Shown here: positions 8,253 to 60,180 of the stretch, in pieces
Numbering within the stretch: position 1 is the first letter of the stretch
How the letters are laid out: the number at the start of each line of letters is the position of its first letter
From: Kiritimatiellia bacterium
GTDB taxonomy: Bacteria > Verrucomicrobiota > Kiritimatiellia > RFP12 > DVOR01
Direction of reading: 5' to 3'
Assembly: GCA_031553315.1 (NCBI GenBank)
Contig: JAVBLT010000001.1
Span: 4,139 to 68,138 of the forward strand
Length of the DNA: 64,000 nucleotides
Notes under the pieces: generated by a model
Database searches by the model: none
Told to the model about the DNA's origin: nothing
What the model saw: the letters and a program-made list of their open reading frames with translations, nothing else
Made by a program: the position numbers and the translations under genes

Positions 8253-9650
8253 ATGCTTCTTTTCGTCGCCGTCAACGCCAAATACACCCACCCCGCCTAC
8301 GCCGCCCGCAGCCTCCGCGCCAACCTTCCCCCCGGCATAGAAGCCGATATCCTCGAAGCCGACCTCGCCGCCACACCCTTCCAGCTCGCCGAAGCCATCC
8401 ACGCCCGCCGCCCCACCCGCCTCGCCTTCTCCACCTACCTCTGGAACGCCCCCCTCCTCCGCCAGACCGCCCGCATCATCCGCCGGATCGCCCCAGACCT
8501 GCCCATCCTCTTCGGCGGCCCCGAAATCACCCCCGACACCGCCCCCCGCTACCAGGATTGCGCCGACTTCCTCCTCATCGGCGAAGGCGAAACCATCCTT
8601 CCCCAATGGGCCCTCAACCCCGCCGCCTTCCCCCGCGTCATCCACGCAGACCCCGTCGACACCGCCACCCTCCGCATCCCCACCCACCTCCACACCGAGA
8701 CCGACATCGCCCAAAAACGCACCCTCTACCTCGAAACCACCCGCGGCTGCCCCTACTCCTGCGCCTACTGCACCTCCGCCAACACACAGCTCCGCCCCCT
8801 CCCCCTCCAAACCCTCCTCCCCGCCATCGACGCCTACCTCGCCCGCGGCATCCGCTCCTTCAAATTCCTCGACCGCTCCTTCAACGCCCTCCCCGACCAC
8901 GCCGCCGCCATTTTACAACACATCCTCGCCTCACCCCACGCCCCCCGCCTCACCCTCCACTTCGAAATCCACCCCCGCCACCTCCCCGCCGCCCTCAAAA
9001 CCCTCTTCACCCAATGCCCCCCCGGCATGCTCCACCTCGAAGTCGGCATCCAGACCCTCAATCCCGCCGTCTCCCAAACCATCGGTCGCGGGGCCGACAC
9101 CGAGACCGCCTTGGAAAATCTCCGCTACCTCACCCGCCACACCGGCGCCGACATCCACGCCGACCTCATCTTCGGCCTTCCCGGCGAAGACGAAGCCTCC
9201 TTCGCCGCCGGCTTCAACCGCCTCATGACCGAATGCCGCCCCGCCGAGCTCCAGGTCAACCTCCTCAAACTCCTCCCCGGCACCCGCCTCCTGCGGGAAG
9301 CCCGCCTCCACGGCCTGCGCCACAACCCCGCCCCCCCCTACGAACTCCTCTCCACCCCTCACATGGATTTCGAGACCCTCACCCGCCTCCAGCGCTTCGC
9401 CCGCGCCTGGGAGCTCACCCACAACCGCGGCCGCTTCCCCCGCGCCGCCGGGCTCCTCCTTCAGCACAACACCCCCTACGCCGCCTACACCGCCCTCGCC
9501 GACCGCATCCACCTTGCCGAAGGCCGCCTCCACGCCCTGGGCCTCCCCACCCTCGGCCGGCACCTCGAAGCCACCCTCCTCGCCCTCGGCCACCCCTCCG
9601 CCGAAGTCACCGCCGCCCTCCACGCCGATCTCAACGCAAAACCCCTTTAG
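8253..9650 (+). CDS. B12-binding domain radical SAM protein (DUF4080-type C-terminus)
   Basis: 465 aa; N-terminal B12-binding-like fold (LLFVAVNAKYTHPAYAARSL), radical SAM core, C-terminal helical DUF4080-like region; stop codon TAG is the first triplet of MITE copy A. Confidence 0.7.
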   Translation: MLLFVAVNAKYTHPAYAARSLRANLPPGIEADILEADLAATPFQLAEAIHARRPTRLAFSTYLWNAPLLRQTARIIRRIAPDLPILFGGPEITPDTAPRYQDCADFLLIGEGETILPQWALNPAAFPRVIHADPVDTATLRIPTHLHTETDIAQKRTLYLETTRGCPYSCAYCTSANTQLRPLPLQTLLPAIDAYLARGIRSFKFLDRSFNALPDHAAAILQHILASPHAPRLTLHFEIHPRHLPAALKTLFTQCPPGMLHLEVGIQTLNPAVSQTIGRGADTETALENLRYLTRHTGADIHADLIFGLPGEDEASFAAGFNRLMTECRPAELQVNLLKLLPGTRLLREARLHGLRHNPAPPYELLSTPHMDFETLTRLQRFARAWELTHNRGRFPRAAGLLLQHNTPYAAYTALADRIHLAEGRLHALGLPTLGRHLEATLLALGHPSAEVTAALHADLNAKPL

Positions 9651-9810
9651 AGCATGTTTCGAATGAGATTTCCGGATCCTTCGAAGGTGATTTTGGGTTT
9701 TGACAAACGCTTTCAGATCGCCGCAGCAACGCTACGGCGATCTGAAAGCGTGAAGTTCAAACAGGAAAAGCACCGAGAAAAATCGAAAAGATCAATCGAA
9801 ATTTGCTCTA
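9648..9810. mobile_element. MITE copy A (IS630-derived, 163 bp, TIR TAGAGCA..TTTC.ATTGA)
   Basis: Left end TAGAGCATGTTTCGAATGAG, right end GATCAATCGAAATTTGCTCTA (inverted); internal hairpin GATCGCCGCAGC-AAC-GCTACGGCGATC; ~90% identical to copy E. Confidence 0.6.
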
Positions 9811-16509: not shown

Positions 16510-16673
16510 TAGAGCAATTTTCAAATGAGAATTCCTGATTTTATGAAAGCGATTTTCTTTTTGACGAACCCTTGAAAGGGAAGCGTAGCCGCGCTGCGAC
16601 AACCTGAAAAGGGTGAAGTTCAAAAACAAAAAGTACCGAGAAAAAGCGGAAAGATCAATCGAAATATGCTCTA
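16510..16673. mobile_element. MITE copy B (164 bp)
   Basis: TAGAGCAATTTTCAAATGAG ... GATCAATCGAAATATGCTCTA; the terminal CTA is the stop codon of the minus-strand antiporter gene. Confidence 0.55.
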
Positions 16674-17705: not shown

Positions 17706-17778
17706 CTCCCGAGGTCAAGCCGTATTGTTCATAAAAAAGCGCGCGCGAAGCCTTTTTTTCATCAACCCCTCTCGCGGC

Positions 17779-18603: not shown

Positions 18604-18840
18604 ATGATCCCCATCGCATTTTTACAGAACTTCAGCGGCCCCGAAATCCTCGTGGTCCTCGTCGTCATCATCGTGCTTTTCGGTGCCAAGAAGATTCCCG
18701 ACATCGCCCGCTCCCTCGGCCGCAGCATGGGCGAATTCAAAAAAGGCCAGAAAGAAGGCGAAGATCTCGCCCGCCAGACCGCCGAGCAGAAAGCCGTGGA
18801 ACCTCCCGCCGAAAACAGCGACAAACCCGCCGCCCAGTAG
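18604..18840 (+). CDS. tatA: twin-arginine translocase subunit TatA/E
   Basis: 78 aa; single TM helix then amphipathic helix FGAKKIPDIARSLGRSMGEFKKG; stop codon TAG is the first triplet of MITE copy C. Confidence 0.85.
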   Translation: MIPIAFLQNFSGPEILVVLVVIIVLFGAKKIPDIARSLGRSMGEFKKGQKEGEDLARQTAEQKAVEPPAENSDKPAAQ

Positions 18841-18904
18841 AGCGCCTTTCGATTGAAAAGGAAAAGCGCCCAAAAAAGCGGCCTGTTCAATCGAAACATG
18901 CTCT
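18838..18904. mobile_element. MITE copy C (minimal 67-bp, palindrome-like version)
   Basis: TAGAGCGCCTTTCGATTGAAAAGG ... CCTGTTCAATCGAAACATGCTCT; both TIR cores present, internal region reduced. Confidence 0.45.
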
Positions 18905-18958
18905 TGTATCCGTTTTAAATCGTAGAAGCAACCCCTGAAAGTGGAGCGAAAGCAACGT

Positions 18959-21118: not shown

Positions 21119-21120
21119 GC

Positions 21121-22137
21121 ATGAAACCGCCCCACAGCGAAGCCAGCCGCAACACGCGCCCGCGCGGCAACGCCGCGCGCGTGCTGCAAGCCCTGCACGC
21201 TTACCCCCGCATCCTCGTGACCGGCCACGTCCGGCCCGACGGCGACTCCGTCGGCTCCTCCGTCGCCCTCGTCCTCATCCTCCAGGCCCTCGGGCACCGC
21301 GCCGCCCTCTCCATCCTCCCCGAAACCGTCGGCGGCCCCCGCTTTCTCCTTCAAGGCCTCCCCAACATCGCCCCCGCCGACCTTGCCGCCGGCGATTTCG
21401 ACGCCGTGGTCGCCCTCGACAGCAGCGCCGATTACCGCATCCCCGACCACATCCAGCCCCTCCTCCAGCGCCTCCCCGTCATCACCATCGACCACCACGG
21501 CACCAACCCCGGCTTCGGCATCATCTCCTGGGTCGAAAGCAACGCCTCCTCCACCGGCGAGCTCATCTACCGCCTCGCCCACCACGCCAGGCTCCCCCTC
21601 ACCCCAGCCATCGCCGAAGCCCTCTGGGTCGCCGTAATCACCGACACAGGCCGCTTCGCCTACGACTCCACCCACCCCTCCACCCTGCGCATGGCCGCCC
21701 GCCTCCTCGCAGCCGGCGTCCGCACCGCCGAAATCAACGACAAAATCTACATCTTCGCCTCCCGCAACGCCCTCGACCTGAAAAGCCGCGCCTACCAATC
21801 CCTCCAGACCTGGTACGAGGACCGCGTCTCCCTCGTCTCCCTCACAGCGGCCGACTTCCGCGAAACCGGCTGCAACAAGAGCGATGTGGAAGACGTCGTC
21901 GACATTCCCCGCGCCATCGAAAACAGCCTCGTCAACCTCTTCTTCTACGAATCCAACAGCCAGCCCGGCGTCACCCGCCTCAGCATCCGCACCCGCGGCG
22001 CGTGCGACGCCACCCTCCTCGCCGCCCAATTCGGCGGCGGCGGCCACTACCGCGCCGCCGGGTGCGACATCCCCGGCGACCTGCCCGCCGCCCGGCAAAC
22101 CGTCAAACAAGCCCTCGCCACCTGGTTCACACGCTAA
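21121..22137 (+). CDS. nrnA: DHH/DHHA1 phosphoesterase (NrnA-like oligoribonuclease/pAp phosphatase)
   Basis: 338 aa; DHH motifs ILVTGHVRPDGDSVGS, ALDSS, ITIDHHGTN; DHHA1 C-terminus with GGGH. Confidence 0.8.
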   Translation: MKPPHSEASRNTRPRGNAARVLQALHAYPRILVTGHVRPDGDSVGSSVALVLILQALGHRAALSILPETVGGPRFLLQGLPNIAPADLAAGDFDAVVALDSSADYRIPDHIQPLLQRLPVITIDHHGTNPGFGIISWVESNASSTGELIYRLAHHARLPLTPAIAEALWVAVITDTGRFAYDSTHPSTLRMAARLLAAGVRTAEINDKIYIFASRNALDLKSRAYQSLQTWYEDRVSLVSLTAADFRETGCNKSDVEDVVDIPRAIENSLVNLFFYESNSQPGVTRLSIRTRGACDATLLAAQFGGGGHYRAAGCDIPGDLPAARQTVKQALATWFTR

Positions 22138-22141
22138 CGCC

Positions 22142-23101
22142 ATGCAAAAAACACCCACCGTCTCCATCGGCCTGCCCGCCTACAAAGCCGCCTACTTCAG
22201 AACCGCCATCGAAAGCCTCCTCGCCCAGACCTACCCGCACTTCGAGCTCATCATCGTAAACGACGCCTCCCCCGAAGACCTCACCGCCATCGTCAATTCA
22301 TACACCGACCCCCGCATCCGCTACTACATCAACGAAGAAAACCTCGGCAAAACCTGCATCGTCAAAACCTGGAACCGCTGCCTCTCCTACGCCACCGGCG
22401 ATTACTTCGTCCTCGCCTCCGACGACGACATCTACCACCCCCGATTCCTCGAAAAGCTCATCGCGCGCGCCCTTGAGCAACCCGCCACCAACGTCTTCCA
22501 CTGCCGCATCAGCGTCGTCGACGAAAACGAAAACCTCCTCAGCGTGGCCCTCCCCTGCCTCACCCACGAAAGCCAGCTCGAATTCATCTTCAACCGCACC
22601 GTCCTGCGCCGCCAGCAAGTCGCCCCCGACTTCATGAGCCGCACCAGCCGCCTGCGTGAAATCGGCGGCTTCATCGAGCTCCCCCTCGGCTGGTACAGCG
22701 ACGACCTCACCTGGTTCCACCTCGCCGACCACGGCGTCGGCTACATCGAAGACCCCCTCTTCAAATGGCGCCTCTCCAAAATCAACATCTCCGGCTCCCC
22801 CGCCCAAGGCGAACAAAAAGCCCTCGCCGCCTTCGAATTCCACCGCCGCCTCTTCGACCTCATCCGCACCCTCGCCCCCGCCAACGAACGCGAAGCCTAC
22901 TGGCTCGGCAAAATCAACGCAAAAGGCCCCAGCGCGATCTTCATCCAGATGGTGAACGACATCCTCCCCCTCACCCACCTCCATTTCTGCAAGCTCTTCC
23001 TCCAGTTTGCCCGCCGCCGCGACTACCCCCGCCGCTTCCTCCCCTACATGCTCTTCAAAAAAATACAGCACACACTCGGCATCGAATTCCACTGGCCCTG
23101 A
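22142..23101 (+). CDS. family 2 glycosyltransferase
   Basis: VSIGLPAYKAAYFRTAIESLLAQTYPHFELIIVNDASPED and DxD (LASDDDIYHP) motifs of GT2. Confidence 0.8.
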   Translation: MQKTPTVSIGLPAYKAAYFRTAIESLLAQTYPHFELIIVNDASPEDLTAIVNSYTDPRIRYYINEENLGKTCIVKTWNRCLSYATGDYFVLASDDDIYHPRFLEKLIARALEQPATNVFHCRISVVDENENLLSVALPCLTHESQLEFIFNRTVLRRQQVAPDFMSRTSRLREIGGFIELPLGWYSDDLTWFHLADHGVGYIEDPLFKWRLSKINISGSPAQGEQKALAAFEFHRRLFDLIRTLAPANEREAYWLGKINAKGPSAIFIQMVNDILPLTHLHFCKLFLQFARRRDYPRRFLPYMLFKKIQHTLGIEFHWP

Positions 23102-23170
23102 GAAACACCCTTTACCTTCAATCAGCAATCCGGTATAGTATCAGGCGTTAGAACCGATATAGGAGACGCC

Positions 23171-25258
23171 ATGAACGTGACCGCCCTCTTCCCCATCCTC
23201 ATCGCCGGCAGCCTCTTCGCCGCCCCCGCCCGCCACCCCAGCTACGAACCCGACCCCCCGACCCCCGCCCTCGGCGGCCCCCAAAACCTCTTCCTCAACG
23301 CCAAAACAACCGCCAAAGACCACTGGTCCGACCGCACCCCCGCCCTCGCCGTCAACGGAAAAACCACCCCCGACAACCACTGGGCCAGCGACACCCTCCC
23401 CTCCTGGCACAGGATCGACCTCGAAAAAATCCAAACCCTCTCCACAATCCGCATCATCCCCTATTGGCCCGACGGCCGCATTTACCAGTTCCACATCGAA
23501 GCCTCGACCGACGGCCAAACCTGGATCACCCTCGCCGACCAGCGCGCCAACTCAATCAACACCGGCCCCAGCGGCTTCACCTTCACCTTCGACCCCACCC
23601 CCGCCCGCCACATCCGCACCACCTTCACCGGCAACACCGCCAACAACGCCGGCCACATCGTCGCCATCGAAGGCTACGCCGCAAAAATCGACCCCGCCGC
23701 CATCACCCTCCACCCCGGCCAGCGCTGGAAACGCTACCACCGCGACCAACCCGCCGACCTTGCCGGCGCCCCCACCGCCATCACCCTCCGCGGCTGGAAA
23801 GGCGAACGCGTCAACGCCATCGCCGTCGCCCAATCCCCCGAAAGCTTCAAAGAACTCATCATCGAACCCTGCACCCTCACCGGCCCGAAAGGCGAACAAA
23901 TCCCCGTAAAGGTCGACATCATCCGCTACACCCTCGCCAACGGAAACCTCACCCCCGACATCCTCGACGGCACCACCCAAACCACCTTCAAAGGCATCAC
24001 CCGCCCCCTCTTCATCAGCATCGACATCCCCCCCGCCGCCCCCCCCGCCGCCCACGGCACCCTCACCCTCCACATCAACGGCAACACCCGCACCCTCCCC
24101 ATCACCCTCAAGGTCGACGACCTCACCCTCCCCCCTCCCCCCCAATGGGTCAGCCATATCGACATCTGGCAACACCCCCACGCCGTCGCCCGCTGGCACG
24201 ACGTCCCCCCCTGGTCCCCCCAGCACCTCGCCCTCATGAAACCCGGCCTCAAACACCTCGCCGGCATCGGCCAGAAAACCATCACCGCCACCCTCATCGA
24301 CGAAGCCTGGAACAGCCAGACCTACGACCGCTTCCCCTCCATGATCCAATGGATCAAAAACCCCGACGGCACCTTCACCTACGACTACACCGCCTTCGAC
24401 ACCTGGGTCAGCTTCATGATCAGCGAAATCGGCATCAACAGCCAGATCTCCTGCTACACCATGCTCCCCTGGACCCTCACCTTCCCCTACTACGACAAAA
24501 CCCTCAACCGCACCATCTCCCCCCGCCTCCAGCCCGGCACCCCCCAATACGAAGCCCACTGGGGCCCCTTCCTCACCGACTTCACCACCCACCTCCGCCA
24601 AAAAGGCTGGCTCGGCATCGCCACAATCGCCATCGACGAACGCCCCGACAACCAAATCAAACCCGCCCTCGCCATCCTCAAAAAATACGCCCCCCAGCTC
24701 CGAATCACCTCCGCCTGCAACGCCCCCAGCGCCATCAACGAAGAATTTCACGACGTCTCCTACATCTTCACCCACGCCGAAAAAGCCGCCGCCCTCGCCG
24801 CCCAGCGCCGCGCCCAAGGCAAAAAAACCACCTACTACGTCTGCGTCCACCCCTTCCGCCCCAACACCTTCCTCGTATCCGACCTCGCCGAATCCGAATG
24901 GTTCCCCACCATGGCCGCCCACTACGGGTTCGACGGCATCCTCCGCTGGGCCTACCAATCCTGGGTTGAAAACCCCCTCCACACCACCGACTACACCGCC
25001 TTCCCCACCGGCGACACCGCCCTCATCTACCCCGGCGACCGCTCCTCCCTCCGCCTCGAATACCTGCGCGACGGCATCGAAACCCTCGAAAAATTCCACA
25101 TCCTGCGCACCATCGCCACCCCCCAGCAACGCGCCCCCATCGAAAAAGCCATCCAAGCCTTCACCGTCAAACGCGGCGGCACCCCCGGCATCCACGCCAG
25201 CGACCTCATCCCCCTGCACACCGCCCTCGACCACGTCGCCGACAACCTCGCGAAATAA
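23171..25258 (+). CDS. secreted protein: N-terminal F5/8 type C (discoidin/CBM32-like) domain plus DUF4091-like putative glycoside hydrolase domain
   Basis: signal peptide MNVTALFPILIAGSLFAAPA; discoidin-like block HWSDRTPALAVNGKT...NHWASD...WHRIDLEK...IPYW; the family of the C-terminal 450 aa is uncertain. Confidence 0.55.
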   Translation: MNVTALFPILIAGSLFAAPARHPSYEPDPPTPALGGPQNLFLNAKTTAKDHWSDRTPALAVNGKTTPDNHWASDTLPSWHRIDLEKIQTLSTIRIIPYWPDGRIYQFHIEASTDGQTWITLADQRANSINTGPSGFTFTFDPTPARHIRTTFTGNTANNAGHIVAIEGYAAKIDPAAITLHPGQRWKRYHRDQPADLAGAPTAITLRGWKGERVNAIAVAQSPESFKELIIEPCTLTGPKGEQIPVKVDIIRYTLANGNLTPDILDGTTQTTFKGITRPLFISIDIPPAAPPAAHGTLTLHINGNTRTLPITLKVDDLTLPPPPQWVSHIDIWQHPHAVARWHDVPPWSPQHLALMKPGLKHLAGIGQKTITATLIDEAWNSQTYDRFPSMIQWIKNPDGTFTYDYTAFDTWVSFMISEIGINSQISCYTMLPWTLTFPYYDKTLNRTISPRLQPGTPQYEAHWGPFLTDFTTHLRQKGWLGIATIAIDERPDNQIKPALAILKKYAPQLRITSACNAPSAINEEFHDVSYIFTHAEKAAALAAQRRAQGKKTTYYVCVHPFRPNTFLVSDLAESEWFPTMAAHYGFDGILRWAYQSWVENPLHTTDYTAFPTGDTALIYPGDRSSLRLEYLRDGIETLEKFHILRTIATPQQRAPIEKAIQAFTVKRGGTPGIHASDLIPLHTALDHVADNLAK

Positions 25259-25460
25259 CCCATGCACAGCGGCATAGACAACGTCGTCATCTGCGCCTCC
25301 GCCGGCTCAGGCAAAACCTACCAGCTCGCCCAGCGCTACATCAGCCTCCTCCGCCAAGGCGTCCCACCCGAACGCATCTGCGCCCTCACCTTCACCCGCA
25401 AAGCCGCCGGAGAAATGTTCGATAAAATCGTAGAAGCCCTCCTCCGCGCCCAACACGAAG

Positions 25461-25472
25461 CCCCCCCCCCCC
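25461..25472 (+). repeat. homopolymeric C12 tract at the first frameshift site of the helicase gene
   Basis: 12 consecutive C; reading frame changes from phase A to phase B across it. Confidence 0.8.
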
Positions 25473-27447
25473 GAAGCCCAAACCCTCACCCACATCCTCC
25501 GCAAACTCCTCCACGCCATCCCCCGCCTCCAAATCGCCACCCTCGACTCCTTCGCCTCCGGCATGGCCCGCGCATTCGCCTTCGAGCTCGGCCTCCCCGC
25601 CGCCATCACCCTCATGGACACCCAATCCCCCGAAGGCCGCGAAGAACAAGCCAAGCTCCTCGCCAACCTCACCGACCCCCGCCGCATCACCAAAAAAGCC
25701 CGCAACGACCTCCTCAAAGCCCTCACCCTCGCCACCCACGGCCAAGCCAGCAAAAAAAGCATCGAAACCACCCTCCAAACCTTCCTCGACCACTACGCCC
25801 CCACCCTCCGCGCCACCGCCCGCCACTGGGGCGACCTCACCCGCGCCTTCCCCCAAGGCCACCCCCGCCCCATCGCCGACCCCAGCCACCGCCGGCAGCT
25901 CCTCCAAACCGCCCAAACCAGCCTCCAGGCCGAAGCCCCCCAAATCGCCGACCGCCTCCTGCCCACCCTCCGCGCCTGCGCCCAATTCACCCCCGACCAC
26001 CCCCTGCCCAAATTTGAAGAGACCCTCCCCAAACAGCTCCTCACCCTCCTCGACCCCAGCCAAACCACCCTCACCTACAACCGCAAAACCTACCCCCTCA
26101 GCCAGCAAACCCTCACCCCCATCCGCGCCCTCCTCACCCACCTCGCCGCCACCGACCTCCAGCGCCACGCCCGCCAGACACACGGCATCGCCCTCGCCCT
26201 CGAACCCTACCTCCAGCTCGAAAGCAACCACATCATCCGCACCGGCCGCATGACCTTCGACGACCTCACCCGCCTCCTCACCCTCGCCGACGCCACCTTC
26301 ACCTCCGCCCACCCCACCCTCCTCGAAAAACGAATCTACATCGACTTCCGCATGGACACCCGCCTCGACCACTACATGCTCGACGAATTCCAAGACACCA
26401 GCGACCGCCAGTGGCAGCTCCTCCAACCCCTCATCAGCGAAGTCGTCACCCCCCCCCCCGGCGAAAAACGCTCCTTCTTCTACGTCGGCGACGTCAAACA
26501 ATCCATCTACGGCTGGCGCGGCGGCAACTACCACCTCTTCGGCCAGATCCACGACCAATACCGCCCCTGGCTCACCCAGCGCCAGCTCAACCAATCCTTC
26601 CGCTCCTCCCCCCCCGTCATCCAAACCATCAACCACGCCTTCGACCTCACCCGCCTCACCCAAACAACCCGCCAAAACCTCCCCCCCGCCACCCTCCAAT
26701 TCTGGCAAAACCAGTGGCAGCCCCACACCATCTCCCCCAAAAGCAAACCCCGCAACGGCATCGCCGAGCTCATCACCCACCCCCCCGGCGCCCCCGCCTC
26801 CGACACCATCGGCGACATCCTCCGCCACCTCCAAAGCCACGGCCCCAAACAGCTCAGCATCGCCATCCTCACCCGCAGCAACGACCAAGGCGCACACCTC
26901 GCCCAAGCCCTCAAAAGCCAAGGCTTCCCCATAGCCCTCGAAGGCAACCGCGACATCCTCGACTCCCCCCTCATCCACCTCGCCATCTCCTTCCTCCGCG
27001 CCATCAGCCACCCCGCCGACACCGCCGCCTGGGGCCACCTCCTCATCAGCCCCCTCGCCGCCACCTACGCCCCCGCCTGCGGCACCCCCACCGAACCCGG
27101 CACCCAAGCCCTCCGCACCGCCTTCTCCCACACCCACCTCCGCCACCTCCACCGCCACGGCCTCCAAAACCTCCTCAACAACCACCTCCTCCCCTTCCTC
27201 TGCCCCCAAACCTTCACCCCCCACGACACCCGCCGCTGGCGCGACCTCCTCCGCCTCGCCCGCCACGCCGACCAAAACGGCGACACCGACCTCGACACCT
27301 TCCTCCGCGCCATCCAAAGCCACACCATCCAAGACACCCCCACCGCCGGCACCATCCGCATCATGACCATCCACAAATCCAAAGGCCTCGGCTTCAACAT
27401 CGTCATCCTCCCCTTCCCCGAGCACGGCGAATCCCTCTCCAACCCCG

Positions 27448-27458
27448 CCCCCCCCCCC
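27448..27458 (+). repeat. homopolymeric C11 tract at the second frameshift site of the helicase gene
   Basis: 11 consecutive C; reading frame returns to the original phase across it. Confidence 0.8.
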
Positions 27459-28422
27459 TCCTCACCGGCCCCGACTGGGCCCTCCTCCGCCCCCACCCCC
27501 CCACCTGCAAGCTCCTCCCCCCCATCACCCAACACGACCAGCCCGCCCGCGCCGACAAAGCCTACGAAACCCTCGCCACCCTCTACGTCGCCCTCACCCG
27601 CGCCGAAAACGCCCTCTACATGATCCTCCCCCCCCCACCCAAAACAGAAACCACCATCCGCCCCGCCACCCTCCTACGCGAGACCCTCGCCGGCCAAACC
27701 CAAGGCACCTACCCCTCCGGCGCCGAAATCCACTACCGCCAAGGCGACCCCCACTGGCACCAAACCATCGCCCCCCTCCCCACAGCCACCCCCGCCCCAC
27801 CCTTCGACCCCGCCACCCTCAACCTACCCCCCGGGCACCCCCGGCCCAAACGCTTCGAGCCCTCCGCCACCCCCCCCCACCCCCAAACCATCGCCAGCCT
27901 CCTCGACCCCGCCCAAATCGCCATACGCGATTTCGGCACCGCCATCCACCGCCTCTTCAGCCGCATCCGCTGGCTCACCGACACCGACCTCGAAACCCAG
28001 ATCGCCACCTGGAAAGCAACCGCCCCCGAAGACCCCCAAATCATCCGCGACGCCGAAACCCAATTCCGCCACGCCATCACCCAGCCCCCCATCCGCGCCG
28101 CCCTCACCCCCCCCCCCACCCCCTGCACACTCTGGCTCGAAACCCCCTTCACCACCCGCCTCAGCCCCAGCCAATACATCGGCGGCCGCTTTGACCGCGT
28201 CCACATCCACCCCCACCGCGCCGAAATCTTCGACTACAAAAGCAGCCTCGTCGACACCCCCGCCCAAGCCCGCCACGCCGCCCAAACCTACCACCCCCAA
28301 ATGGCCCTCTACCGCCTCGCCCTCGCCCGCCTCCTCAACCTCCCCCCCCCCGCCATCACCGCCCACCTCCTCTTCACCCGCACCGGCCAACGCATCACCC
28401 TCACCTTCCAGGATTGATCGCC

Positions 28423-29343
28423 ATGCACCTCACCACCACCCCCGCCCACACCGGCACCCGCCTCGACGCCACCCTCGCCGCCCACCTCCCCCACTACCCC
28501 CGCCCCCTCCTGAAAGACGCCTTCGCCGCCGGCCTCATCCACGTCAACAACCGCCCCGCCCCCAAAGGCCTCATCCTCCAGCCCCACATGACCATCGACC
28601 TCAGCCGCCTCCCCCCCCCCGCCAGCCAATTTGCCCACCCCAACCCCGACCTCCCCCTTCCCCTCATCCACCAAGACCCCCACCTCCTCGCCTTCAACAA
28701 ACCCGCCGGCATACCCTGCCACCCCAACCGCCGCACCGAGCGCCACACCCTCGCCAACGCCATCGCCCACCACTACCCCACCCTCCTCGGCCTGGGCGAC
28801 ACCCCCCTCATGACCGGCATCCTCCACCGCATCGACACCCACACCTCCGGCCTCACCCTCGCCGCCCGCACCCCACACGCCTACACCCACCTCCGCCGCC
28901 AATTCCAGGCCCACACCATCGAAAAAATCTACCACGCCCTCGTCATCGGCACCCTCACCCGCCCCGCCACCCTCCGCCACAACCTCGCCCACCACCCCAC
29001 CTGCCCCGGCCGCATCATCAACGCCGACCACTGGCACGCCCCCCCCCGCCCCATGCCCGCCACCACCGCCTACACCCCCCTCAGCCACCACACCCTCAGC
29101 GGGCGCCCCTACACCCTCCTGGAAGTCACCATCCACACCGGCGTCACCCACCAGATCCGCGCCCAGCTCAGCTTCAGCGGCCACCCCATCCTGGGCGACA
29201 CCCGCTACGGCGCCCCCCCCCACCCCGCCTTCCCCCGCCACTTCCTCCACGCCAGCGCCCTCACCCTCCTCCACCCCCAAACCAGCCACCCCATCACCCT
29301 GCGCGCCCCCCTTCCCCCCGACCTCCAGCAACTTCTCACCTGA
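28423..29343 (+). CDS. RluA-family pseudouridine synthase
   Basis: HQDPHLLAFNKPAGIPCHP and LHRIDTHTSGLTLAART (catalytic Asp motif); overlaps the helicase stop. Confidence 0.8.
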   Translation: MHLTTTPAHTGTRLDATLAAHLPHYPRPLLKDAFAAGLIHVNNRPAPKGLILQPHMTIDLSRLPPPASQFAHPNPDLPLPLIHQDPHLLAFNKPAGIPCHPNRRTERHTLANAIAHHYPTLLGLGDTPLMTGILHRIDTHTSGLTLAARTPHAYTHLRRQFQAHTIEKIYHALVIGTLTRPATLRHNLAHHPTCPGRIINADHWHAPPRPMPATTAYTPLSHHTLSGRPYTLLEVTIHTGVTHQIRAQLSFSGHPILGDTRYGAPPHPAFPRHFLHASALTLLHPQTSHPITLRAPLPPDLQQLLT

Positions 29344-29393: not shown

Positions 29394-29469
29394 GCCGGGT
29401 TAGCTCAGTTGGTAGAGCAGCTGATTTGTAATCAGCAGGTCGTCGGTTCGAGTCCGGCCCCCGGCTCCA
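29394..29469 (+). tRNA. tRNA-Thr (anticodon TGT)
   Basis: GCCGGGTTAGCTCAGTTGGTAGAGCAGCTGATTTGTAATCAGCAGGTCGTCGGTTCGAGTCCGGCCCCCGGCTCCA. Confidence 0.85.
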
Positions 29470-29552: not shown

Positions 29553-30656
29553 TAGAGCAACTTTCTATTGAAATGTCCTTGCCTGGCATGATCTGAACCA
29601 CCCTTCTGTATCAAGACTTGTAACCCTTGAAATCGCCTCCGTAATGGCATCAGACAAGAGCTCTTGTGTTCGTGCGGCCAAACCGCGTAACGTTGTTTTG
29701 ACCTTGCTCCACATCTTTTCAATCGGGTTGAAATCAGGACTGTAAGGCGCAAGAAAGAGAACACGGGCACCACAATTTTCAATGATCACTCTGGCTTGAG
29801 GATCAAGGAGTGTGCTGAGATCGTCCATCACAACGACATCGCCCGGGCGCAGTTTGGGCGACAAAACGTACTCAACACAGGCGCGAAACGCGGCTCCATT
29901 CATGGCTCCCGGCAATTCCATCACCGCCGTTGAACCATCCAGCCAGACGGCGCCAATGAGCGTGGTCGTACACCCATGCCCGTGCGGCGCGTGGGCAAAG
30001 AGGCGTTCGCCGCCGTAAGCCCATCCGCGCAAACGGGTCATGTTGGTTTTCGCACCGGATTCATCGATAAAAATCAGGTGTTCGGGATCGAGCGTTTGGA
30101 GTAATTGGAGCCACAGGAGCGCGCCGGTCGAATCGAAACACCAATCCGCCACTTCCCACGGCAGCCACAGCGAGAGGCGCACCCGGTCGCCGAGGGCTTG
30201 GCGCTGGGCAAGGGTGCGCTGCACGGGCCGCCCGGTCTCGGGGTCAACGGCGGCGGCGCACCGGTCGGCCTGAACCCAGAGCCACTGGCACGCGGTGAGC
30301 GTTTCCGACACATCGAGCCAGAAATCGGCAATGCTTTTGCCGGTGCCCGTGCAGTCGGCCTCAAACGCGGGGTCGATGCCCGCGCGCTCGATCTCGCGGC
30401 TGAACAGATACTGATTGATTTTGGCGGCCACGCGACCCGCGTCGTTGACCACCGCCGCGCGGTTGCGGCGGCCGGTGCACCCCGAGGCGGCGAAAGGGCG
30501 GTTGCCCGTCCACGACGCCTCGCTTTCATTGGGCGCCCTCCACAGGCGGGCGTCTACATACGCCCTGCCGCCGTGCAGCGCCAAAACGTTCAAGACAAGC
30601 TGATCCTTGCGCCCGGCCAGAATCCGGTGCCGCCGCTTCGCGATGATTCCCTGCAT
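29553..30656 (-). mobile_element. IS630-family insertion sequence (one recognisable end at 29553; the other end not identifiable)
   Basis: terminal sequence TAGAGCAACTTTCTATTGAAATG at 29553 shares the TIR core of the five MITE copies; contains the transposase ORF below. Confidence 0.6.
29565..30656 (-). CDS. IS630/Tc1-mariner family DDE transposase
   Basis: 363 aa; IFIDESG (first D) and APYSPDFNPIEKMWSKVK (the classic IS630 D-34-E region). Confidence 0.85.
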   Translation of the reverse strand: MQGIIAKRRHRILAGRKDQLVLNVLALHGGRAYVDARLWRAPNESEASWTGNRPFAASGCTGRRNRAAVVNDAGRVAAKINQYLFSREIERAGIDPAFEADCTGTGKSIADFWLDVSETLTACQWLWVQADRCAAAVDPETGRPVQRTLAQRQALGDRVRLSLWLPWEVADWCFDSTGALLWLQLLQTLDPEHLIFIDESGAKTNMTRLRGWAYGGERLFAHAPHGHGCTTTLIGAVWLDGSTAVMELPGAMNGAAFRACVEYVLSPKLRPGDVVVMDDLSTLLDPQARVIIENCGARVLFLAPYSPDFNPIEKMWSKVKTTLRGLAARTQELLSDAITEAISRVTSLDTEGWFRSCQARTFQ

Positions 30657-30658
30657 GG

Positions 30659-31183
30659 TTACCCTTTCACAATCCGTTCGATCATCTTTTCAAAGTCTTC
30701 GGTGATTTTTTTTTCGCTGTCGGCCAGTGCCCGCTCGATGAATTTATGGTCGGCGCGGTCGCCCTTCGCCCGCGTGCCGGGGCCGCGTTTGCGCCAACTG
30801 GTACCCTTTTCATTGTGGATTTTCGCGGCGTATTTGCCCGCCTCGCTGTTGGCGGCCACAAAAACCTCGGCCTCAAGGCTGGGATACACCTTCTGTTCGA
30901 TGCTCCGCTCAAGACCTCGGGGTTTGGCGCGGCTTGTGGCGCGGTTGTTGCGCTTACCTTTGCGCTTGGTTTTTTTGAGAGCGTTTTTCTGTGCCTGCGT
31001 GGGGCTTCGGGGGGCGTTGCGCCGCGCCTCGCGCTGCACGAGCAGAGCGGCTTTCGCAAGTTGATCATTGACCCTTTCGAGCAATTTCTTGCCCTTGAAG
31101 CCCAATTGCGCGACCAATAAGCCGACGTCTAAACCTGTGGTGTAAATCTCCATGCCATTGGCCACGGTGTCAACCCGGGGCAC
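30659..31183 (-). CDS. phage-related protein, possibly an HK97-gp10-like head-tail connector (weak)
   Basis: 174 aa, Lys/Arg-rich middle; stop codon lies 2 nt from the transposase start; lies in the phage-remnant island. Confidence 0.35.
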   Translation of the reverse strand: MPRVDTVANGMEIYTTGLDVGLLVAQLGFKGKKLLERVNDQLAKAALLVQREARRNAPRSPTQAQKNALKKTKRKGKRNNRATSRAKPRGLERSIEQKVYPSLEAEVFVAANSEAGKYAAKIHNEKGTSWRKRGPGTRAKGDRADHKFIERALADSEKKITEDFEKMIERIVKG

Positions 31184-31198
31184 AAAAAAGCCGCCCGG

Positions 31199-31465
31199 TC
31201 AGGGGCGGCGGTTGAGGCGTGCGAGGCGTGATTGCTTCGGGTCGAAACCGATGAGATTCCATCGCTTCTTTTTTGGGTCGTACTCATACTCGGCGTCTTT
31301 TTCAACAAATTCTTTGATGCGCGCCTCGGTTACAGTCATATCAAGGTCGGGCTCATTTGCGAATCTCGCCATGCCGATAGCTTTATGAATGGCGAATGCC
31401 CGCGCGGGGTGGCGCCCCGTTCCGGCGGGAAGGGTACCCCAATCCTCTTTGTAAAGCCCGACCAT
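31199..31465 (-). CDS. small hypothetical protein immediately downstream of the MuF C-terminal module (candidate immunity protein); start uncertain (31465 ATG or 31582 TTG)
   Basis: 88-127 aa; lies in the same low-GC (~45%) segment as the MuF C-terminal domain; no motif. Confidence 0.3.
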   Translation of the reverse strand: MVGLYKEDWGTLPAGTGRHPARAFAIHKAIGMARFANEPDLDMTVTEARIKEFVEKDAEYEYDPKKKRWNLIGFDPKQSRLARLNRRP

Positions 31466-31529
31466 CTCATCGAAGTCGGCGTCTGTGTAGCCCAAATCCG
31501 GGCGAAAATCATAAATTAAATGCACGGAG

Positions 31530-32816
31530 TTACTCCTCTTTGTGGCGAAGCACCTTATACGACATTCCTGTTTCTTTTGCAACTCTTTTCCAAATCATAT
31601 TTCCTTCCAATATGTCACGTTCGGCTCTGGTTATCCGTTCGCTTGCCATTCGTTTGGAAAGGATTTCATTCACTTCTCTTTCCGCCTTCAAGTAGGATCT
31701 TGTGATGTCGTTTTCGTGTGGCCATTTTCCCTCACGGGTCATTACATAGTCGCGGCGAGGCGAAACCGCGCGAATCGAGCGCATGTTGCCATCTGCCGCC
31801 GTCACCACGTCCGCAAAGGAAAGACTGGTTCCGTATCCCATAAACTGCCCGGGGTGGTTGTGAACCATCGTCGCATCAACAAGTTTTCCAAACCACTCTT
31901 TTGGAAGTTTCCCGCCGTTTACGCCACTGCGCTTCCGGTCGAAAAGCATATTGCCGTTGGAATCCATCGCACTGAAATACTCGCACCCCTTCGATTTCAT
32001 GTAGTCGCGCTCACTGGCAATTTTAGCCTTCAGTTCCGGGCTTTCGATACGGTCTTCGGCGCGTTGCTTTTCAATTTGCTTCGCTTCCTCTTTTTCGAGT
32101 TTTTCACCGTATTTTCGCCCCTCCGCCGCCGCGCGTTCCCGTGCCTTTTCGAGTCGCGTTTCTTTTCGGTCATCTTCGCGCTGTTTTACGCGTTCCTTCG
32201 CTCCTGCTATTTTTTCTTTTCTCGCCGCTTCCCGCGCCTTCTTCGCTTCGCGCTCGGGGTCTTCGCCGCGGGCTCGCCCCGCCGCCGCCTTGAGGCCGCC
32301 GACAACCTCCTCGGCTCCGGCGCCGCGTTCCACGCGTAAAACGCCGCCCCTGCTACTCATGCGGAAGCCCGGCTGTTCGCCCTTCTTGGCATACTGGATG
32401 CGCGGCAGCTCGCCCTTGTAAAACGTATCAAGGTCTTCGGGCTTGGCCGATGCCGCCGCTTCCTTCGCAATGGCGCTGTCGAAAAGACCGTGGCGCACGG
32501 CGGTTTCGACTTCATCGCGGGCGGTCTGGCGCTCGGCATCTTGCCGCGAAAGCCCCCCCTCCTCCATGTGGCGCCGCGTGGTCAATTCGCGTTGGCGGCG
32601 GTGCATGGCCTCTTCATCGGCCATCTCATCGGCGGTCGGCTTGCCCAGCGCCGCCTGCCGCGCCATTTCGCCCGCTTCGCGCGGTTCGTCGATGTATTCC
32701 AGGCGATGGGTGCAGTTGGGGTGAAAGACTCCCGCCGCCTGCGCCTCGGCGTAGGTCGGGTAATCCTTCGATTTGCCCGCCACGCAGACGATTTGCCCCT
32801 CCCATGCGCCGCACAC
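31530..32816 (-). pseudogene. N-terminally truncated phage MuF/SPP1-gp7 family head morphogenesis protein with charged linker and divergent C-terminal domain
   Basis: begins (GTG) just before the MuF domain's terminal motif VFHPNCTHRLEY (hPNCRC-like); open frame upstream to 32990 lacks the rest of the domain; long E/K/R-rich linker; the last ~150 aa sit in a low-GC segment. Confidence 0.5.
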
Positions 32817-33021
32817 ATCGCAGGGGGAGCCGGAATCGGCGGAAATCAGCGCCAGTGAAATCTCGCTTTCAACGGGGGTGTCGATGTAGGCCTCGTTATG
32901 ACGAACTGCGGGGGCGGAAGGTTTTTTCTTTTTGGCTTGTCTTTCGGGCTCGGCGGGATTATTCTGTTCGCTTCCATTTTTGTATCATAGAGGCGTATTT
33001 TTTTATTGTTAGAGGCAGAAT

Positions 33022-35029
33022 TATGGCAACGATCACTCACGAGCAACTGGCGTTGGCGGCAAATACCCTGCGCTGTCTTTCCATCGATGCGGTTCAGGCG
33101 GCTAAATCCGGTCATCCCGGCATTGCCCTGGGCCTGGCCGATGTGGCGGCTGTGCTGTGGCTCAAATACCTGAAGGCCTGGTCGGGTCACTCCAAATGGC
33201 CCGACCGCGACCGTTTTGTGCTCTCCGGCGGTCACGGCAGCGCTTTGCTCTACAGCCTTCTGCACCTCTCGGGGTATCAGATTTCGATCGATGATCTCAA
33301 GCGCTTCCGTCAATTCGGCAGCAAAACCCCCGGCCACCCCGAATACGGCTACACCGATGGCGTGGAAACCACCACCGGCCCGCTCGGCCAGGGCATCGCC
33401 AACGGTGTGGGCATGGCCGTCGCCGAGCGTATGCTGGCGGTGCGTTTCAACTGCGAGGCGCGCACGGTGGTCGACCACCGCACCTGGGTCTTTTGCGGCG
33501 ACGGCGACATGATGGAGGGCATCAGCCACGAAGCCTGTTCCATGGCCGGTCACCTCGGGCTTGAAAAGCTTGTGATGTTTTACGATTCGAACAACATCAC
33601 CATCGAAGGCAAGGTCGACCTTGCCATGACCGATGATACCGCCAAGCGTTTCCAGGCCTACGGCTGGCATGTGCTCGCCTGCAACGGCCATGATTTCGAC
33701 GACATCGACAAAACCATCCGCAAGGCCACCCGCCTCACCGGCAAGCCCGTCCTCATCATTTGCACGACGACCATCGGCAAAGGCTCCCCCAACAAGGCCA
33801 ATTCCGAGGAAAGCCACGGAGCGCCTTTGGGCGAAGACGAAGTGCGCCTCACCAAAACCGCCCTCGGCTGCGACCCCGACCTGCATTTCCACGCCCCCGA
33901 TTCCGTCTACGATCTCTTCCAGGCCCGCCAGGACGAAGTCAAAAAAACTTACGGTCGCTGGAACCGCATGCAGAAGGCCTGGGCCAAGGAAGACAAAACC
34001 TCCTTCGAGCTTTGGCGCGCGTATAATGAAGACGTTATTCCCGACCTGAGCGGCGTGATGCCCTCTTTCGACCCCGCCAAACCCGTCGCCACCCGCTCCG
34101 CCTCCGGGGCCGTGCTCAACGCCATCGCCCCGCTTGTGCCTCAGCTCGTGGGCGGTTCCGCCGATCTGGGCTCCAGCAACATGACTGTGCTCAAAGGCCT
34201 GGGCGACATCACCGCCGGCGCCTTCGAAGGGCGCAACTTCCACTTCGGCGTGCGCGAGCTGGGCATGGCCGGCGTGATGAACGGCATCGCCATCCACGGC
34301 GGTCTGCGCGTCTACGGCGCCACCTTTTTCGTGTTCAGCGACTACTGCCGCCCCGCCATGCGCATCGCCGCGCTCATGGGCGCTCCCGTGGTCTATGTGT
34401 TCTCGCACGACAGCTTCTATGTGGGCGAAGACGGCCCCACTCACGAACCCGTGGAGCAGCTCGCGGCGCTTCGGATGATGCCCGGCATGACCGTGATCCG
34501 CCCGGCCGACGCCACCGAAACCGTCGCCGCCTGGAACGTGGCCCTCAACCACAAGCACGGCCCCGTGGCTCTCCTGCTCACCCGCCAGAACGTGCCTGTG
34601 CTCGACCGCGCCGTTTACCCCGCGGCCGAAAACCTCGCCAGGGGCGCCTACACCCTCTGGCAGACCCGCCCGGAAGAGACGCCGGAAATGATCATCATCG
34701 CCACCGGATCCGAGGTGGAAATCGCCCTCGAAGCCGCCAAGGCCTTCACGCACCGCAATGTCCGCGTCGTCAGCATGCCCTCGTGGGAACTGTTCGACGA
34801 ACAGCCCAAAGCGTACCGCGATTCCGTGCTCGACCCCGCCTGCGCCAAGCGCATGGCCGTGGAAGCCGGTTCCTCCTTCGGCTGGCAGAAATACATCGGG
34901 TGCGACGGCGCCACCGTCTGCCTCGACACCTTCGGCGCCTCCGGCCCCTTCAAAGTGCTCGCCACGCAATTCGGTTTCACCGCCGAAAACGTGCTCATGG
35001 TCGCCCGCACTCACATGATCGCCAAGTAA
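33022..35029 (+). CDS. tkt: transketolase
   Basis: 669 aa; N-terminus EQLALAANTLRCLSIDAVQAAKSGHPGIALGLADVAAVLW and the GDGDMMEG TPP-binding motif. Confidence 0.9.
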
Positions 35030-44048: not shown

Positions 44049-44066
44049 GCCCCGGAAAATTTGAAC

Positions 44067-57233: not shown

Positions 57234-57328
57234 TAGAGCAGGTTTAAATTGAAACTTCGTGATTTTTGCCGAATCCTTGAACGCGAGCCGTAGCAGCGTT
57301 GCCGAAGTTTCATTTTAAATATGCTCTA
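57234..57328. mobile_element. MITE copy D (95 bp)
   Basis: TAGAGCAGGTTTAAATTGAAAC ... GTTTCATTTTAAATATGCTCTA, a 22-bp inverted repeat pair. Confidence 0.5.
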
Positions 57329-57426: not shown

Positions 57427-60051
57427 ATGATGAAACGTCTACTGAGCTGTGTTGTCCTCCTCTTCGCAAGCGGCCCCGCATTCGGTTATCCCGCGGTCGA
57501 AGGCCTCATCGGCCGCCTCCTGCCCGCCTATCAGGATCAGATCGTGTTGGAAGACAATCTCCCCCCCGCCCCCGGCGGGCGCGACGCCTTCATCATTTCC
57601 ACCGACGCCCGGGGCCGCCTCGTGCTCGGCGGCTCCAGCCCCGTGGCCCAGGCCTCCGCCCTCGGCTGGTACCTCCGCCACACAGCCGGTTGCGAAGTGA
57701 GCTGGGAAGGCACACAGCTCAACCTCCCCGAAAAGCTCCCCCCCCTCGCCCAGCCCATCCAAAAAACCACCCCCTACCGCTTCCGCCCCTACCTCAACTA
57801 CTGCACCCTCAGCTACTCCGCCCCCTTCTGGAACTGGCAACGCTGGGAGCGCGAGATCGACGTCATGGCCCTCAACGGCATCAACATGCCCCTCTCCCCC
57901 ATCGGCCTTGAAGGCGTGTGGTACAACATGCTCCGCCAATTCGCCTTCACCGATGCCGAAGCGCGCGAATTCCTCGTAGGCCCCGCCTTCTTCGCCTGGC
58001 AGTGGATGACCAACATCGAAGACTTCGCCGGCCCCCTCCCCAAAAACTGGATCGAGACCCACATCACCCTCGGCCAGCGCATCATGAAACGCCAGCTCGA
58101 TTTCGGCATGACCCCCATCCAGCAAGGCTTCACCGGCTTCGTACCCCTTAAAATGAAAGAAAAATTCCCCCAGGCCGCCATCAGACAGCAGCCCCCCTGG
58201 TGCGGAGCCTTCAAAGGCAGCGCCCAGATCGACCCCCTCGACCCCCTCTTCCCCAAGCTCGCCGCCGCCTTCTACGCCGAGCAGAAAAAACTCTTCGGCG
58301 CCCACGGCTACTACGGCGCCGACCCCTTCCACGAAAGCTCACCCCCCCAAGCCGGCGACGCCTACCTCACCGCCGTCGGCAAAATCATCTGCCAAGAAGC
58401 CCTCAAAGCCGACCCCGACGCCACCCTCTGCATGCAATCCTGGAGCCTCCGCACCCCCATCATGCGCGCCATCCCCAAAAACCACCTCCTCGTGCTCGAC
58501 ATCGGCGGCAAATGGGCCCGCTCAAACGCGTTCGACGGCTACCCCTTCACCATCGGCACCATCCACAACTTCGGCGGCCGCACCCGCCTCTTCGGCGATC
58601 TCGCCGGCCTTGCCCGCAACAGCTTCCTCAGCGCAAAAACCCAAAATCCCAACTGCATCGGCATGGGCCTCTTCCCCGAAGCCATCCAAAACAACCCCGT
58701 CTACTTCGGCATGATCTTCGACCTCATCTGGCGCGACACCCCCCTCGACATCGCCCAATGGATCCCCGCCTACACCGCCCGCCGCTACGGCACCCAAGAC
58801 CCCGCCATCGACCAAGCCTGGCGGCTCCTCCTCCAAAGCGTCTACAAACCCGGAACCGGCCGCGGCTCCTCGCTCATCTGCGCAAGCCCCGCCCTCAACA
58901 TACGCCAGGCAGACCCCAACGAAGGCTTCCGCATCGACTACAACCCCCTCACCCTCCTCAGCGCCTGGGAAACCCTCCTCAGCGCCAGCCCCAAAATCAA
59001 AAACGCCCCCGGCTACAGCTTCGACCTCGCCGACATCGGCCGCCAAGTCATGGCCGACACCCTCCTCGCCCTCCACTGCACCGTCGCCAACGCCTACCTC
59101 GACCAAAACCTCGCCGCCTACCGCCGCGCCGTCGAGACCTTTCACGCCTTCGCCCTCGATTTCGACGCGCTCATGAAAACCCAGCCCCTCTTCTCCTTCG
59201 AGAAATGGGTTCAGGATGCCCGCGCCTGGGGCGCCACCCCCGCCGAAAAAGACCTCTACGCCCTCAACGCCGCCCTCCAGATCACCCAATGGGGCGCCAA
59301 CGGCAACCACCGCCCCCGCATCTGCGAATACGCCTGGAAAGAATGGTCCGGCCTCATCCGCGACTACTACATCCCCCGCTGGGCCATCTTCCACAACGAG
59401 CTCGAAAAAAACCTCATCGCCGGCGCCCCCTGGCCCGATGAAGACAAAAACAAAATCAAAGACTGGGGCCGCACCGCCTACCGCACAACCCCCTTCATGA
59501 ACACCTTGGCCGACTTCGAAGACCCCTGGATCCGCTCCCCCCACATCTACCCCCCCCATCACCCCGGCGACACCCCCGCCGAAGCCGCCCGCATCCTCGC
59601 CAAATGGGGCAGCCACATCAAAGCCAGCCTCGCGACCAACCCCATCGACCAGATCCGCCGGATCCGCCAGCGCATCGCCGCGCGCGACACCACCGCCGAC
59701 CTCGGCGCCCCCGTCTTCACCTGGTCCAAAAAAGACTGCGCCCTCGGCTGGAAAACCTGGACTGTCGACATCACCCCCGCCATCATCCAAAACGGCCAAT
59801 ACGAAATCACCTTCCTCTACCAAAACGGCGGCGCCCGCCTCGACATCGCCGAAGCCACCCTCCTCCAAAACGGCCGCGAAATTTCCAAAGACGCCCACCC
59901 CGGATCCACCGGCGACATCAACACCGCCAACACCTACCTCCTGAGCCACACCGACCCCATCATCGGCGCCACCTTCACCCTCCAGGCCAAAGTCAAAACC
60001 CACGGCTCCACCAGCTCCAACGGCAAAATCTGGGTTCGCCTCCGCAAATAG
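57427..60051 (+). CDS. alpha-N-acetylglucosaminidase (GH89, NAGLU-like) with C-terminal F5/8-type C / CBM32-like domain
   Basis: 874 aa; signal peptide; YRFRPYLNYCTLSYSAPFWNWQRWEREIDVMALNGINMPL matches the GH89 N-terminal/TIM-barrel junction; stop TAG is the first triplet of MITE E. Confidence 0.8.
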   Translation: MMKRLLSCVVLLFASGPAFGYPAVEGLIGRLLPAYQDQIVLEDNLPPAPGGRDAFIISTDARGRLVLGGSSPVAQASALGWYLRHTAGCEVSWEGTQLNLPEKLPPLAQPIQKTTPYRFRPYLNYCTLSYSAPFWNWQRWEREIDVMALNGINMPLSPIGLEGVWYNMLRQFAFTDAEAREFLVGPAFFAWQWMTNIEDFAGPLPKNWIETHITLGQRIMKRQLDFGMTPIQQGFTGFVPLKMKEKFPQAAIRQQPPWCGAFKGSAQIDPLDPLFPKLAAAFYAEQKKLFGAHGYYGADPFHESSPPQAGDAYLTAVGKIICQEALKADPDATLCMQSWSLRTPIMRAIPKNHLLVLDIGGKWARSNAFDGYPFTIGTIHNFGGRTRLFGDLAGLARNSFLSAKTQNPNCIGMGLFPEAIQNNPVYFGMIFDLIWRDTPLDIAQWIPAYTARRYGTQDPAIDQAWRLLLQSVYKPGTGRGSSLICASPALNIRQADPNEGFRIDYNPLTLLSAWETLLSASPKIKNAPGYSFDLADIGRQVMADTLLALHCTVANAYLDQNLAAYRRAVETFHAFALDFDALMKTQPLFSFEKWVQDARAWGATPAEKDLYALNAALQITQWGANGNHRPRICEYAWKEWSGLIRDYYIPRWAIFHNELEKNLIAGAPWPDEDKNKIKDWGRTAYRTTPFMNTLADFEDPWIRSPHIYPPHHPGDTPAEAARILAKWGSHIKASLATNPIDQIRRIRQRIAARDTTADLGAPVFTWSKKDCALGWKTWTVDITPAIIQNGQYEITFLYQNGGARLDIAEATLLQNGREISKDAHPGSTGDINTANTYLLSHTDPIIGATFTLQAKVKTHGSTSSNGKIWVRLRK

Positions 60052-60180
60052 AGCAGATTCCGAATGAGATTTCCGGATTCTTCGAAGGTGATTTTGGGTT
60101 TTTACAAACGCTTGAGGTGAGCCGTAGCAACGCTACGGCGAGCTGAAAGGCAGATTGCAACGGAATCAAGCACGATACCC
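60049..60180. mobile_element. MITE copy E (left end defined, right end degenerate)
   Basis: TAGAGCAGATTCCGAATGAGATTTCCGGATTCTTCGAAGGTGATTTTGGGTTTT...GCCGTAGCAACGCTACGGCGAGCTGAAAG is ~90% identical to copy A over ~110 bp. Confidence 0.5.

Follow-up and report, generated by a model that had tools for sequence, protein, structure and literature searches.

The window (the whole stretch of 64,000 nt from a Kiritimatiellia bacterium that was analysed here) contains a 363-aa open reading frame (ORF) on the minus strand, which lies between a tRNA-Thr gene and a prophage remnant. A preliminary description had taken this ORF as the transposase of a resident IS630-family insertion sequence (IS) with the same terminal repeat as five short non-coding elements (MITEs) elsewhere in the window. 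The features of the region are:

29394..29469, plus strand: tRNA-Thr(TGT), found by ARAGORN and Rfam, 83 bp from the IS end
29553..29575, minus strand: right terminal inverted repeat, including the flanking TA (29553-29554) and overlapping the stop codon (29565-29567)
29553..30113, minus strand: IS630-family remnant of 561 bp, from the 3′ part of an element of ~1.0 kb
29565..30113, minus strand: DDE (DD34E) catalytic half, aa 182-363, assigned by Pfam, NCBIfam and homology
30063-30065 (D198), 29823-29825 (D278) and 29718-29720 (E313): catalytic triad with DD34E spacing, intact
30108..30113, minus strand: fusion junction TGGCTC (Trp-Leu), a 6-nt microhomology present in both parent sequences
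30114..30656, minus strand: 5′ two-thirds of a portal-like phage gene (phrog_12458 / phrog_145), its 3′ end cut by the junction
29565-30656, minus strand: chimeric ORF of 363 aa, with a phage N-terminus and an IS630 DDE C-terminus
30659..32816, minus strand: prophage remnant of three ORFs with weak but consistent matches (phrog_5, TIGR01725, phrog_4611)
30659-31183, minus strand: HK97-gp10-like / tail-completion-like ORF
31199-31582, minus strand: 127-aa ORF
31530-32816, minus strand: minor-capsid (MuF-like) ORF of 428 aa, 5′-truncated

IS630/Tc1/mariner transposases bind the inverted repeats of their elements via an N-terminal HTH domain and direct insertion into TA, which is duplicated. The IS630/Tc1 signatures previously read in the ORF are present, namely IFIDESG (aa 195-201) and APYSPDFNPIEKMW, though the transposase occupies only aa 182-363. 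Pfam gave DDE_3 as the sole domain (aa 194-330, E=1.2e-25), and the NCBIfam profile transpos_IS630 (NF033545) scored 104.7 bits against a cut-off of 100, matching only profile positions 139-298 of 299. In having this DDE_3 (DD34E) catalytic domain, the relic resembles members of the IS630 family such as ISY100. No HTH domain was matched in the ORF by Pfam, and positions 1-138 of the transpos_IS630 profile found no counterpart. In relatives of this IS, the HTH is encoded by a separate upstream ORF (orfA, 120-148 aa) that overlaps the DDE ORF (orfB), and tblastn with three orfA sequences found no homologue in the 64 kb.

The N-terminal ~190 aa of the ORF matched the PHROG families phrog_12458 and phrog_145 (portal), at 1.9e-07 and 4.8e-07. 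A database search with aa 1-181 returned six proteins, none with a DDE domain. The best of them, P0121, is a 273-aa phage protein whose first 180 aa are 55% identical to ORF residues 1-181, and its gene, on a phage-like contig of 36.8 kb (L088), directly follows those for Terminase_2 and Terminase_6N. A search with the C-terminal half returned >5,000 IS630 proteins, which among the matches listed were mostly of 180-213 aa with DDE only. The combined phage-DDE architecture occurred in no homologue of either half among the matches listed in both searches, and the ORF forms a singleton cluster in a collection of 15 billion proteins. Since aa 1-181 match phage proteins, the C-terminus has DDE_3 only and the window lacks orfA, we conclude that the ORF is a chimera, most likely a pseudogene fusion.

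The breakpoint was located with the closest relative of the IS, the Logan contig SRR29082276_24978 (L001, encoding P0001), whose orfB is 78% identical in amino acids to the DDE half. In a local DNA alignment, homology to L001 spans window positions 30113 to 29553 only and stops exactly at the terminal TA. Codon-level comparison placed the crossover in TGGCTC, where the phage gene of P0121 reads ..L-I-W-L.. and L001 orfB reads ..A-W-L-R-L-L.. in the two parent frames. Misassembly at this point is unlikely, as the parents share just 6 nt here and the junction lies inside an independent Logan contig (L169) that matches the window at 100% over 30085-33394. L169 ends 28 nt into IS sequence, roughly the point at which a repeat would cause an assembly graph with k=31 to branch. 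This hints faintly at further IS copies; the other end of L169 breaks too, in a unique gene.

The preliminary description had suspected a one-ended or damaged copy, and this proved right: the element has its right repeat only (29553-29575), lacks the HTH half and is cut at 30113. The left inverted repeat and the frameshift site found in relatives are absent from the relic, with L001 homology stopping internally. A TA is present at the surviving end, and the opposite end is gone. Pattern and matrix scans found no further repeat-like site near the 363-aa ORF, and the window holds no other IS630 sequence besides the relic. The left end had been called unrecognisable on the ground that the transposase start abuts the stop of the next gene, an explanation that the internal cut replaces. 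The ATG at 30656, 2 nt from the next ORF's stop at 30659, is the start of the phage gene, and the 2-nt spacing is phage-operon packing, not an IS boundary. The window copy differs from IS630-family elements in being a 561-bp 3′ fragment that is fused to phage DNA and has neither HTH half nor left end.

The surrounding phage DNA is itself disrupted. Positions 30114-32816 form a scrambled prophage fragment of ~2.7 kb with cut genes at both ends, between the transketolase gene (33023-35029) and the IS relic, and its gene order differs from that of the related phage contig L088. The first 160 aa of the 428-aa ORF match an internal part of the L088 Phage_min_cap2 gene (E=5e-13), and this ORF is thus 5′-truncated. 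The tRNA-Thr gene is likely the landmark of an old integration hotspot; an att-type repeat of its 3′ end or spacer, sought over 29.6-40 kb, was not found beyond 11-mers. Codon usage of the chimeric ORF (C3 0.37, G3 0.33) is unlike that of host genes (C3 0.57-0.82, G3 0.06-0.24), and GC skew is ~0 in the IS/phage block versus -0.4 to -0.65 in neighbouring host genes. Given this atypical codon usage and skew, the IS and phage DNA are foreign and not yet adjusted to the host.

The composition of the host genes is itself extreme: their coding strands favour C over G (at third positions, C makes up 57-88% and G 6-24%), and a GC skew of -0.4 to -0.65 is sustained over many kb. C-rich/G-poor stretches lie at 6000-10000, 20000-29300, 44000-54000 and 57400-60050 (plus-strand genes) and at 39421-41475 (a minus-strand gene), and transketolase is among the genes with a much less extreme C bias. 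An RluA-like ORF (28414-29343) has 88% C at third positions, and its protein is composed of 11% His, 13% Pro and 11% Thr with 1% Glu and 1.3% Val, the HRxD..TSG catalytic motif being kept. A tmRNA gene at 54306-54660 (minus strand; ARAGORN, and Rfam at 151 bits) is ordinary, with the tag peptide ANDNFALAA.

Signs of decay were sought in the DDE half by comparison with 120 homologues, among which 86 columns are each at least 90% conserved. The window copy deviates at 8/86 of these columns (homologue mean 2.1), and at least eight deviations were seen in only 6/119 homologues. Two of them, N279D and H283L, fall in the DNxxxH motif and P303A is another; the columns of H283L and P303A are invariant among the homologues. 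Against L001, dN/dS is ~0.09 with dS saturated. A ratio this low indicates that most of the divergence predates inactivation and argues for purifying selection on the DDE half over the greater part of its past; the truncation may have happened recently.

The five repeats that the preliminary description had connected with this IS are:

9648..9810: MITE M1, 163 bp, TA on both flanks, with an internal 21-nt hairpin
16510..16673: MITE M2, 164 bp, TA on both flanks, 88% identical to M1 across the right 66 nt
18838..18905: mini-MITE M3, 68 bp, right flank TT and not TA, kinship through the inverted repeats only
57234..57328: mini-MITE M4, 95 bp, 26-nt inverted repeats that are 88% complementary, TA on both flanks
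60049..60149: MITE M5, left end and ~100 nt, 89% identical to M1, without a right end

They are non-coding, multi-copy (four complete and one partial) and 68-164 bp long, with inverted repeats that are 83-88% complementary where reported (M3, M4). M1, M2 and M5 are alike internally as well, at 88-89% identity over 66-89 nt; M3 and M4 have only their ends in common with other copies. The interiors share nothing with the IS apart from the ends, and Rfam placed no family on the MITEs or the IS. At the centre of M1 (9707-9751), between two convergent genes, lies a hairpin of 21 nt that is near-perfect (95% complementary), has a loop of 3 nt and could be a bidirectional terminator; the central sequences of M2 and M5 are related to it.

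The outer (right) end of the IS630-family element reads TAGAGCAACTTTCTATTGAAATG at 29553-29575. Its outer edge lies 12 nt past the stop codon (29565-29567; CTA when read on the plus strand), so that the repeat overlaps the stop. To compare it with the MITEs, a 23-nt position matrix was built from the nine MITE ends alone, leaving the IS end out. On this matrix the IS end scored 30.8 bits, within the range of the MITE ends themselves (29.8-38.3), while the best remaining site in the window (128 kb, counting both strands) reached 17.8 bits and the maximum in 30 shuffles was 16.9. Relaxed searches gave the shared terminus of the five short elements as TAGAGCAnnTTTCnAwTGA, and the degenerate 19-mer pattern TAGAGCANNTTTMNAWTGA had 10 matches at ≤1 mismatch in the window versus 0.01 expected, these being the nine MITE ends and the IS end. 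In pairwise comparison the IS end is identical to individual MITE ends at 16-19/23 positions, with a mismatch at repeat position 14, where the IS has T and the MITEs have G or A. The full 23-mer TAGAGCAACTTTCTATTGAAATG, searched exactly and with ≤3 mismatches, had no second site in the window; the MITEs were detected only at 4-7 mismatches or by the degenerate pattern. These results bear out the earlier observation that the sequence beyond the stop matches the MITE repeats, and they answer the proviso that the identity might be expected by chance: scores and match counts alike argue that the likeness is real. The best site outside the MITEs and the IS, TCGAGCAGTTTCACATTGAAATC at 1943-1965 (minus strand, 17.8 bits), is just above the shuffle maximum and may be a decayed solo end.

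The IS family to which this end belongs was defined from 89 distinct elements among 168 loci (177 ends), with 53-65% amino acid identity to the window DDE half. No near-identical full-length copy was among them, the best being 61% on genome contigs and 65% on metagenome contigs. Full-length relatives measure 990-1060 bp and have two ORFs and TA-GAGC(A/G)... ends on both sides. One element recurs in different flanks (L005, L006 and L007), which fixes its boundaries at TA...TA. The relic thus resembles the IS630 family in its inverted repeats of ~20-26 nt, in the TA flanks seen in relatives and MITEs and in the ~1 kb length of full-length relatives. A run of eight A residues (A8) stands at the end of orfA in L001 and L005, and we infer that it would be a programmed frameshift site yielding an OrfAB fusion. 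ISY100 has a single ORF; the full-length relatives of the window copy differ in their two overlapping ORFs with the A8 run.

Within this sample L001 is closest to the window copy. In addition to the 78% identity over the DDE half, its right end (TAGAGCAACTTTCTAATGA) is almost the same, overlaps the stop codon exactly where the window copy does, and has flanks similar in composition. L001 differs in retaining orfA (HTH_28/HTH_29) and the A8 run, both missing from the relic. The contig ends 37 nt upstream of orfA, short of the left repeat of the subfamily. The L001 flank (987-1070) is G-rich on the strand shown and C-rich on the other, like the window host genes, and, read in frame with the terminal TAG of the IS, has 28 codons without a stop; L001 probably comes from a host related to the window organism. 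On two Kiritimatiellales MAG contigs (L002 and L003), several IS630 copies of this clade stand back to back, and at 2270-2300 of L003 two abutting elements have a single common TA (..gctcTAgagc..). IS630 elements inserted at the ends of other IS630 copies, nested or adjacent, appear to be common in such contigs.

Some MITE ends also form the ends of genes. At four of the nine MITE termini (TA|G...), a long ORF takes its TAG stop from the repeat; Pfam supports three of these ORFs as genes:

9648-9650: left end of M1, stop of a radical-SAM/B12 gene
9808-10569, minus strand: 253-aa ORF with its stop in the right end of M1
16671-17714: Na/Ca exchanger gene (matched by Pfam as far as aa 344 of 347) with its stop in the right end of M2
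57403-60051: NAGLU-family gene with its stop in the left end of M5

The empty site of M1 would read TTAA, common to two convergent stops. A rather doubtful reading of these four termini is that an intact copy of the IS subfamily is still active elsewhere and that TA|G termini land in the TA of stop codons, rebuilding TAG on both sides. If true, this would make insertion at gene ends neutral in a GC-rich genome and explain the persistence of the MITEs. In the flanks of full-length relatives, however, there was no enrichment (19 in-frame versus 16 and 13 in the control frames), and stop-codon targeting as a property of the clade is unsupported.

The likeness of ends could also have arisen if the MITEs came from a different, related IS630 element, the relic sharing with them a clade-wide end motif and not the parent lineage. 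TAGAGC(A/G) ends do occur in some 90 distinct relatives spread over many phyla, TAGAGCA being clade-wide, and the first 7 nt are consequently uninformative by themselves. The comparison was made on positions 8-23 of the MITE matrix, where the right end of L001 (14.3) and the window end (13.9) are the best two of 177. The ends that follow score 12.3, 12.0 and 11.8 (median of the 177 ends, -6.9), some of them near-equal to the window end, and the margin of the window subfamily over sister subfamilies is modest. The MITE interiors, sharing nothing with the IS, would equally suit another parent. Against such a parent stand the two top ranks, the agreement of the L001 right end with the M2 left end at 26/32 positions, including TTCCTGAT at positions 23-30, and the want of any other IS630 sequence in the window. 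We regard a different parent as unlikely and favour, though not exclusively, the assignment of the MITEs to the IS630 subfamily of the window IS and L001. Relatives with different terminal repeats would have spoken against the link between IS and MITEs, which the 177 ends left standing. Judged by the MITE-end matrix, the pairwise identities and the 177 IS ends, the MITEs share their ends with an autonomous element of the family.

Associations of this kind have precedents. RUP of pneumococcus is a short non-coding repeat that inserts at TA and has ends resembling IS630-Spn1 (Oggioni and Claverys 1999, as outlined in the review PMC2229807), and in that review's account its mobilisation in trans was inferred from this similarity of ends (PMC2229807). 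The same logic links M1-M5 to their IS630 subfamily. The differences are the other host lineage, the unrelated sequence, the heterogeneity of the window MITEs (forms of 163-164 bp, 95 bp and 68 bp) and the fact that the only resident IS in the window is dead. Stowaway MITEs and their Tc1/mariner elements are similar in the TA target, in ends shared with an autonomous element and in being miniaturised derivatives, but they are eukaryotic, reach far higher copy numbers and have no sequence relationship to the window MITEs.

We consider it highly probable that the locus is a dead, one-ended IS630 relic fused to a phage gene, and that the MITEs belong to the same subfamily and were moved by another, full-length copy. 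In this scheme, 29553-30113 would be the right-hand half of an IS of ~1.0 kb in which orfA (HTH) and orfB (DDE) were joined across the A8 slippery run. A deletion between the shared TGGCTC sites would have joined phage codon ~182 to the start of the orfB DDE region, removing the left inverted repeat, orfA, the frameshift site and the remainder of the phage gene, and the open 363-aa frame that resulted would be due to chance. What is left keeps the D-D-E triad and one end, has no DNA-binding domain and shows the first losses of invariant residues. The MITEs would be non-autonomous derivatives with ends of ~20 nt and TA flanks, moved by cut-and-paste into TA sites via full-length OrfAB transposase made by a copy elsewhere in the genome or already lost.

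The preliminary description had instead proposed the resident IS as the likely autonomous partner of the MITEs, which would require an essentially complete transposase that acts in trans, its left end being merely obscured. The end common to IS and MITEs, the intact D-D-E triad in an open frame and an NCBIfam score barely over the cut-off (104.7 vs 100) are what such a transposase would show. However, the ORF has phage-derived sequence in its first 181 aa and no HTH domain, the IS breaks off at 30113, orfA is missing from the window, and invariant residues are lost. Furthermore, in ISY100 of Synechocystis (IS630 family), where insertion duplicates TA, binding of the ends needs the N-terminal HTH domain (PMC2170065). 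Lacking this domain and having one end only, the relic should be able neither to transpose nor to mobilise MITEs, and we judge this copy a very improbable partner. The shared end does tie the MITEs to a specific type of transposase, as had been claimed; the ability of this particular copy to act in trans is not borne out, as it consists of a DDE half without HTH. Least credible of all is that the fusion is a functional, domesticated protein and not debris: its in-frame 363-aa reading, intact D-D-E triad and low dN/dS against L001 are outweighed by its singleton status, an architecture absent from homologues of either half among the matches listed, parents both cut mid-domain at a 6-nt microhomology, the lost invariant H and P, a location within a scrambled piece of prophage whose codon usage is atypical and the 1-in-3 prior of an in-frame outcome.

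An automatic caller would name the 363-aa ORF an "IS630 family transposase", since it just passes the NCBIfam cut-off, and that label would wrongly imply that the genome holds an autonomous partner for its MITEs. Read as a phage::IS fusion pseudogene, the ORF means that the window offers no evidence of still-mobile MITEs. The locus also documents a clean junction of the kind expected from microhomology-mediated deletion. Neither the junction nor the subfamily placement changes known IS630 or MITE biology, the IS being an ordinary degraded transposon relic. For the MITEs, the outcome is a place in a defined IS630 subfamily, favoured on their ends, that is widespread in MAGs labelled Kiritimatiellae, Verrucomicrobiota, Planctomycetota and Phycisphaerae.
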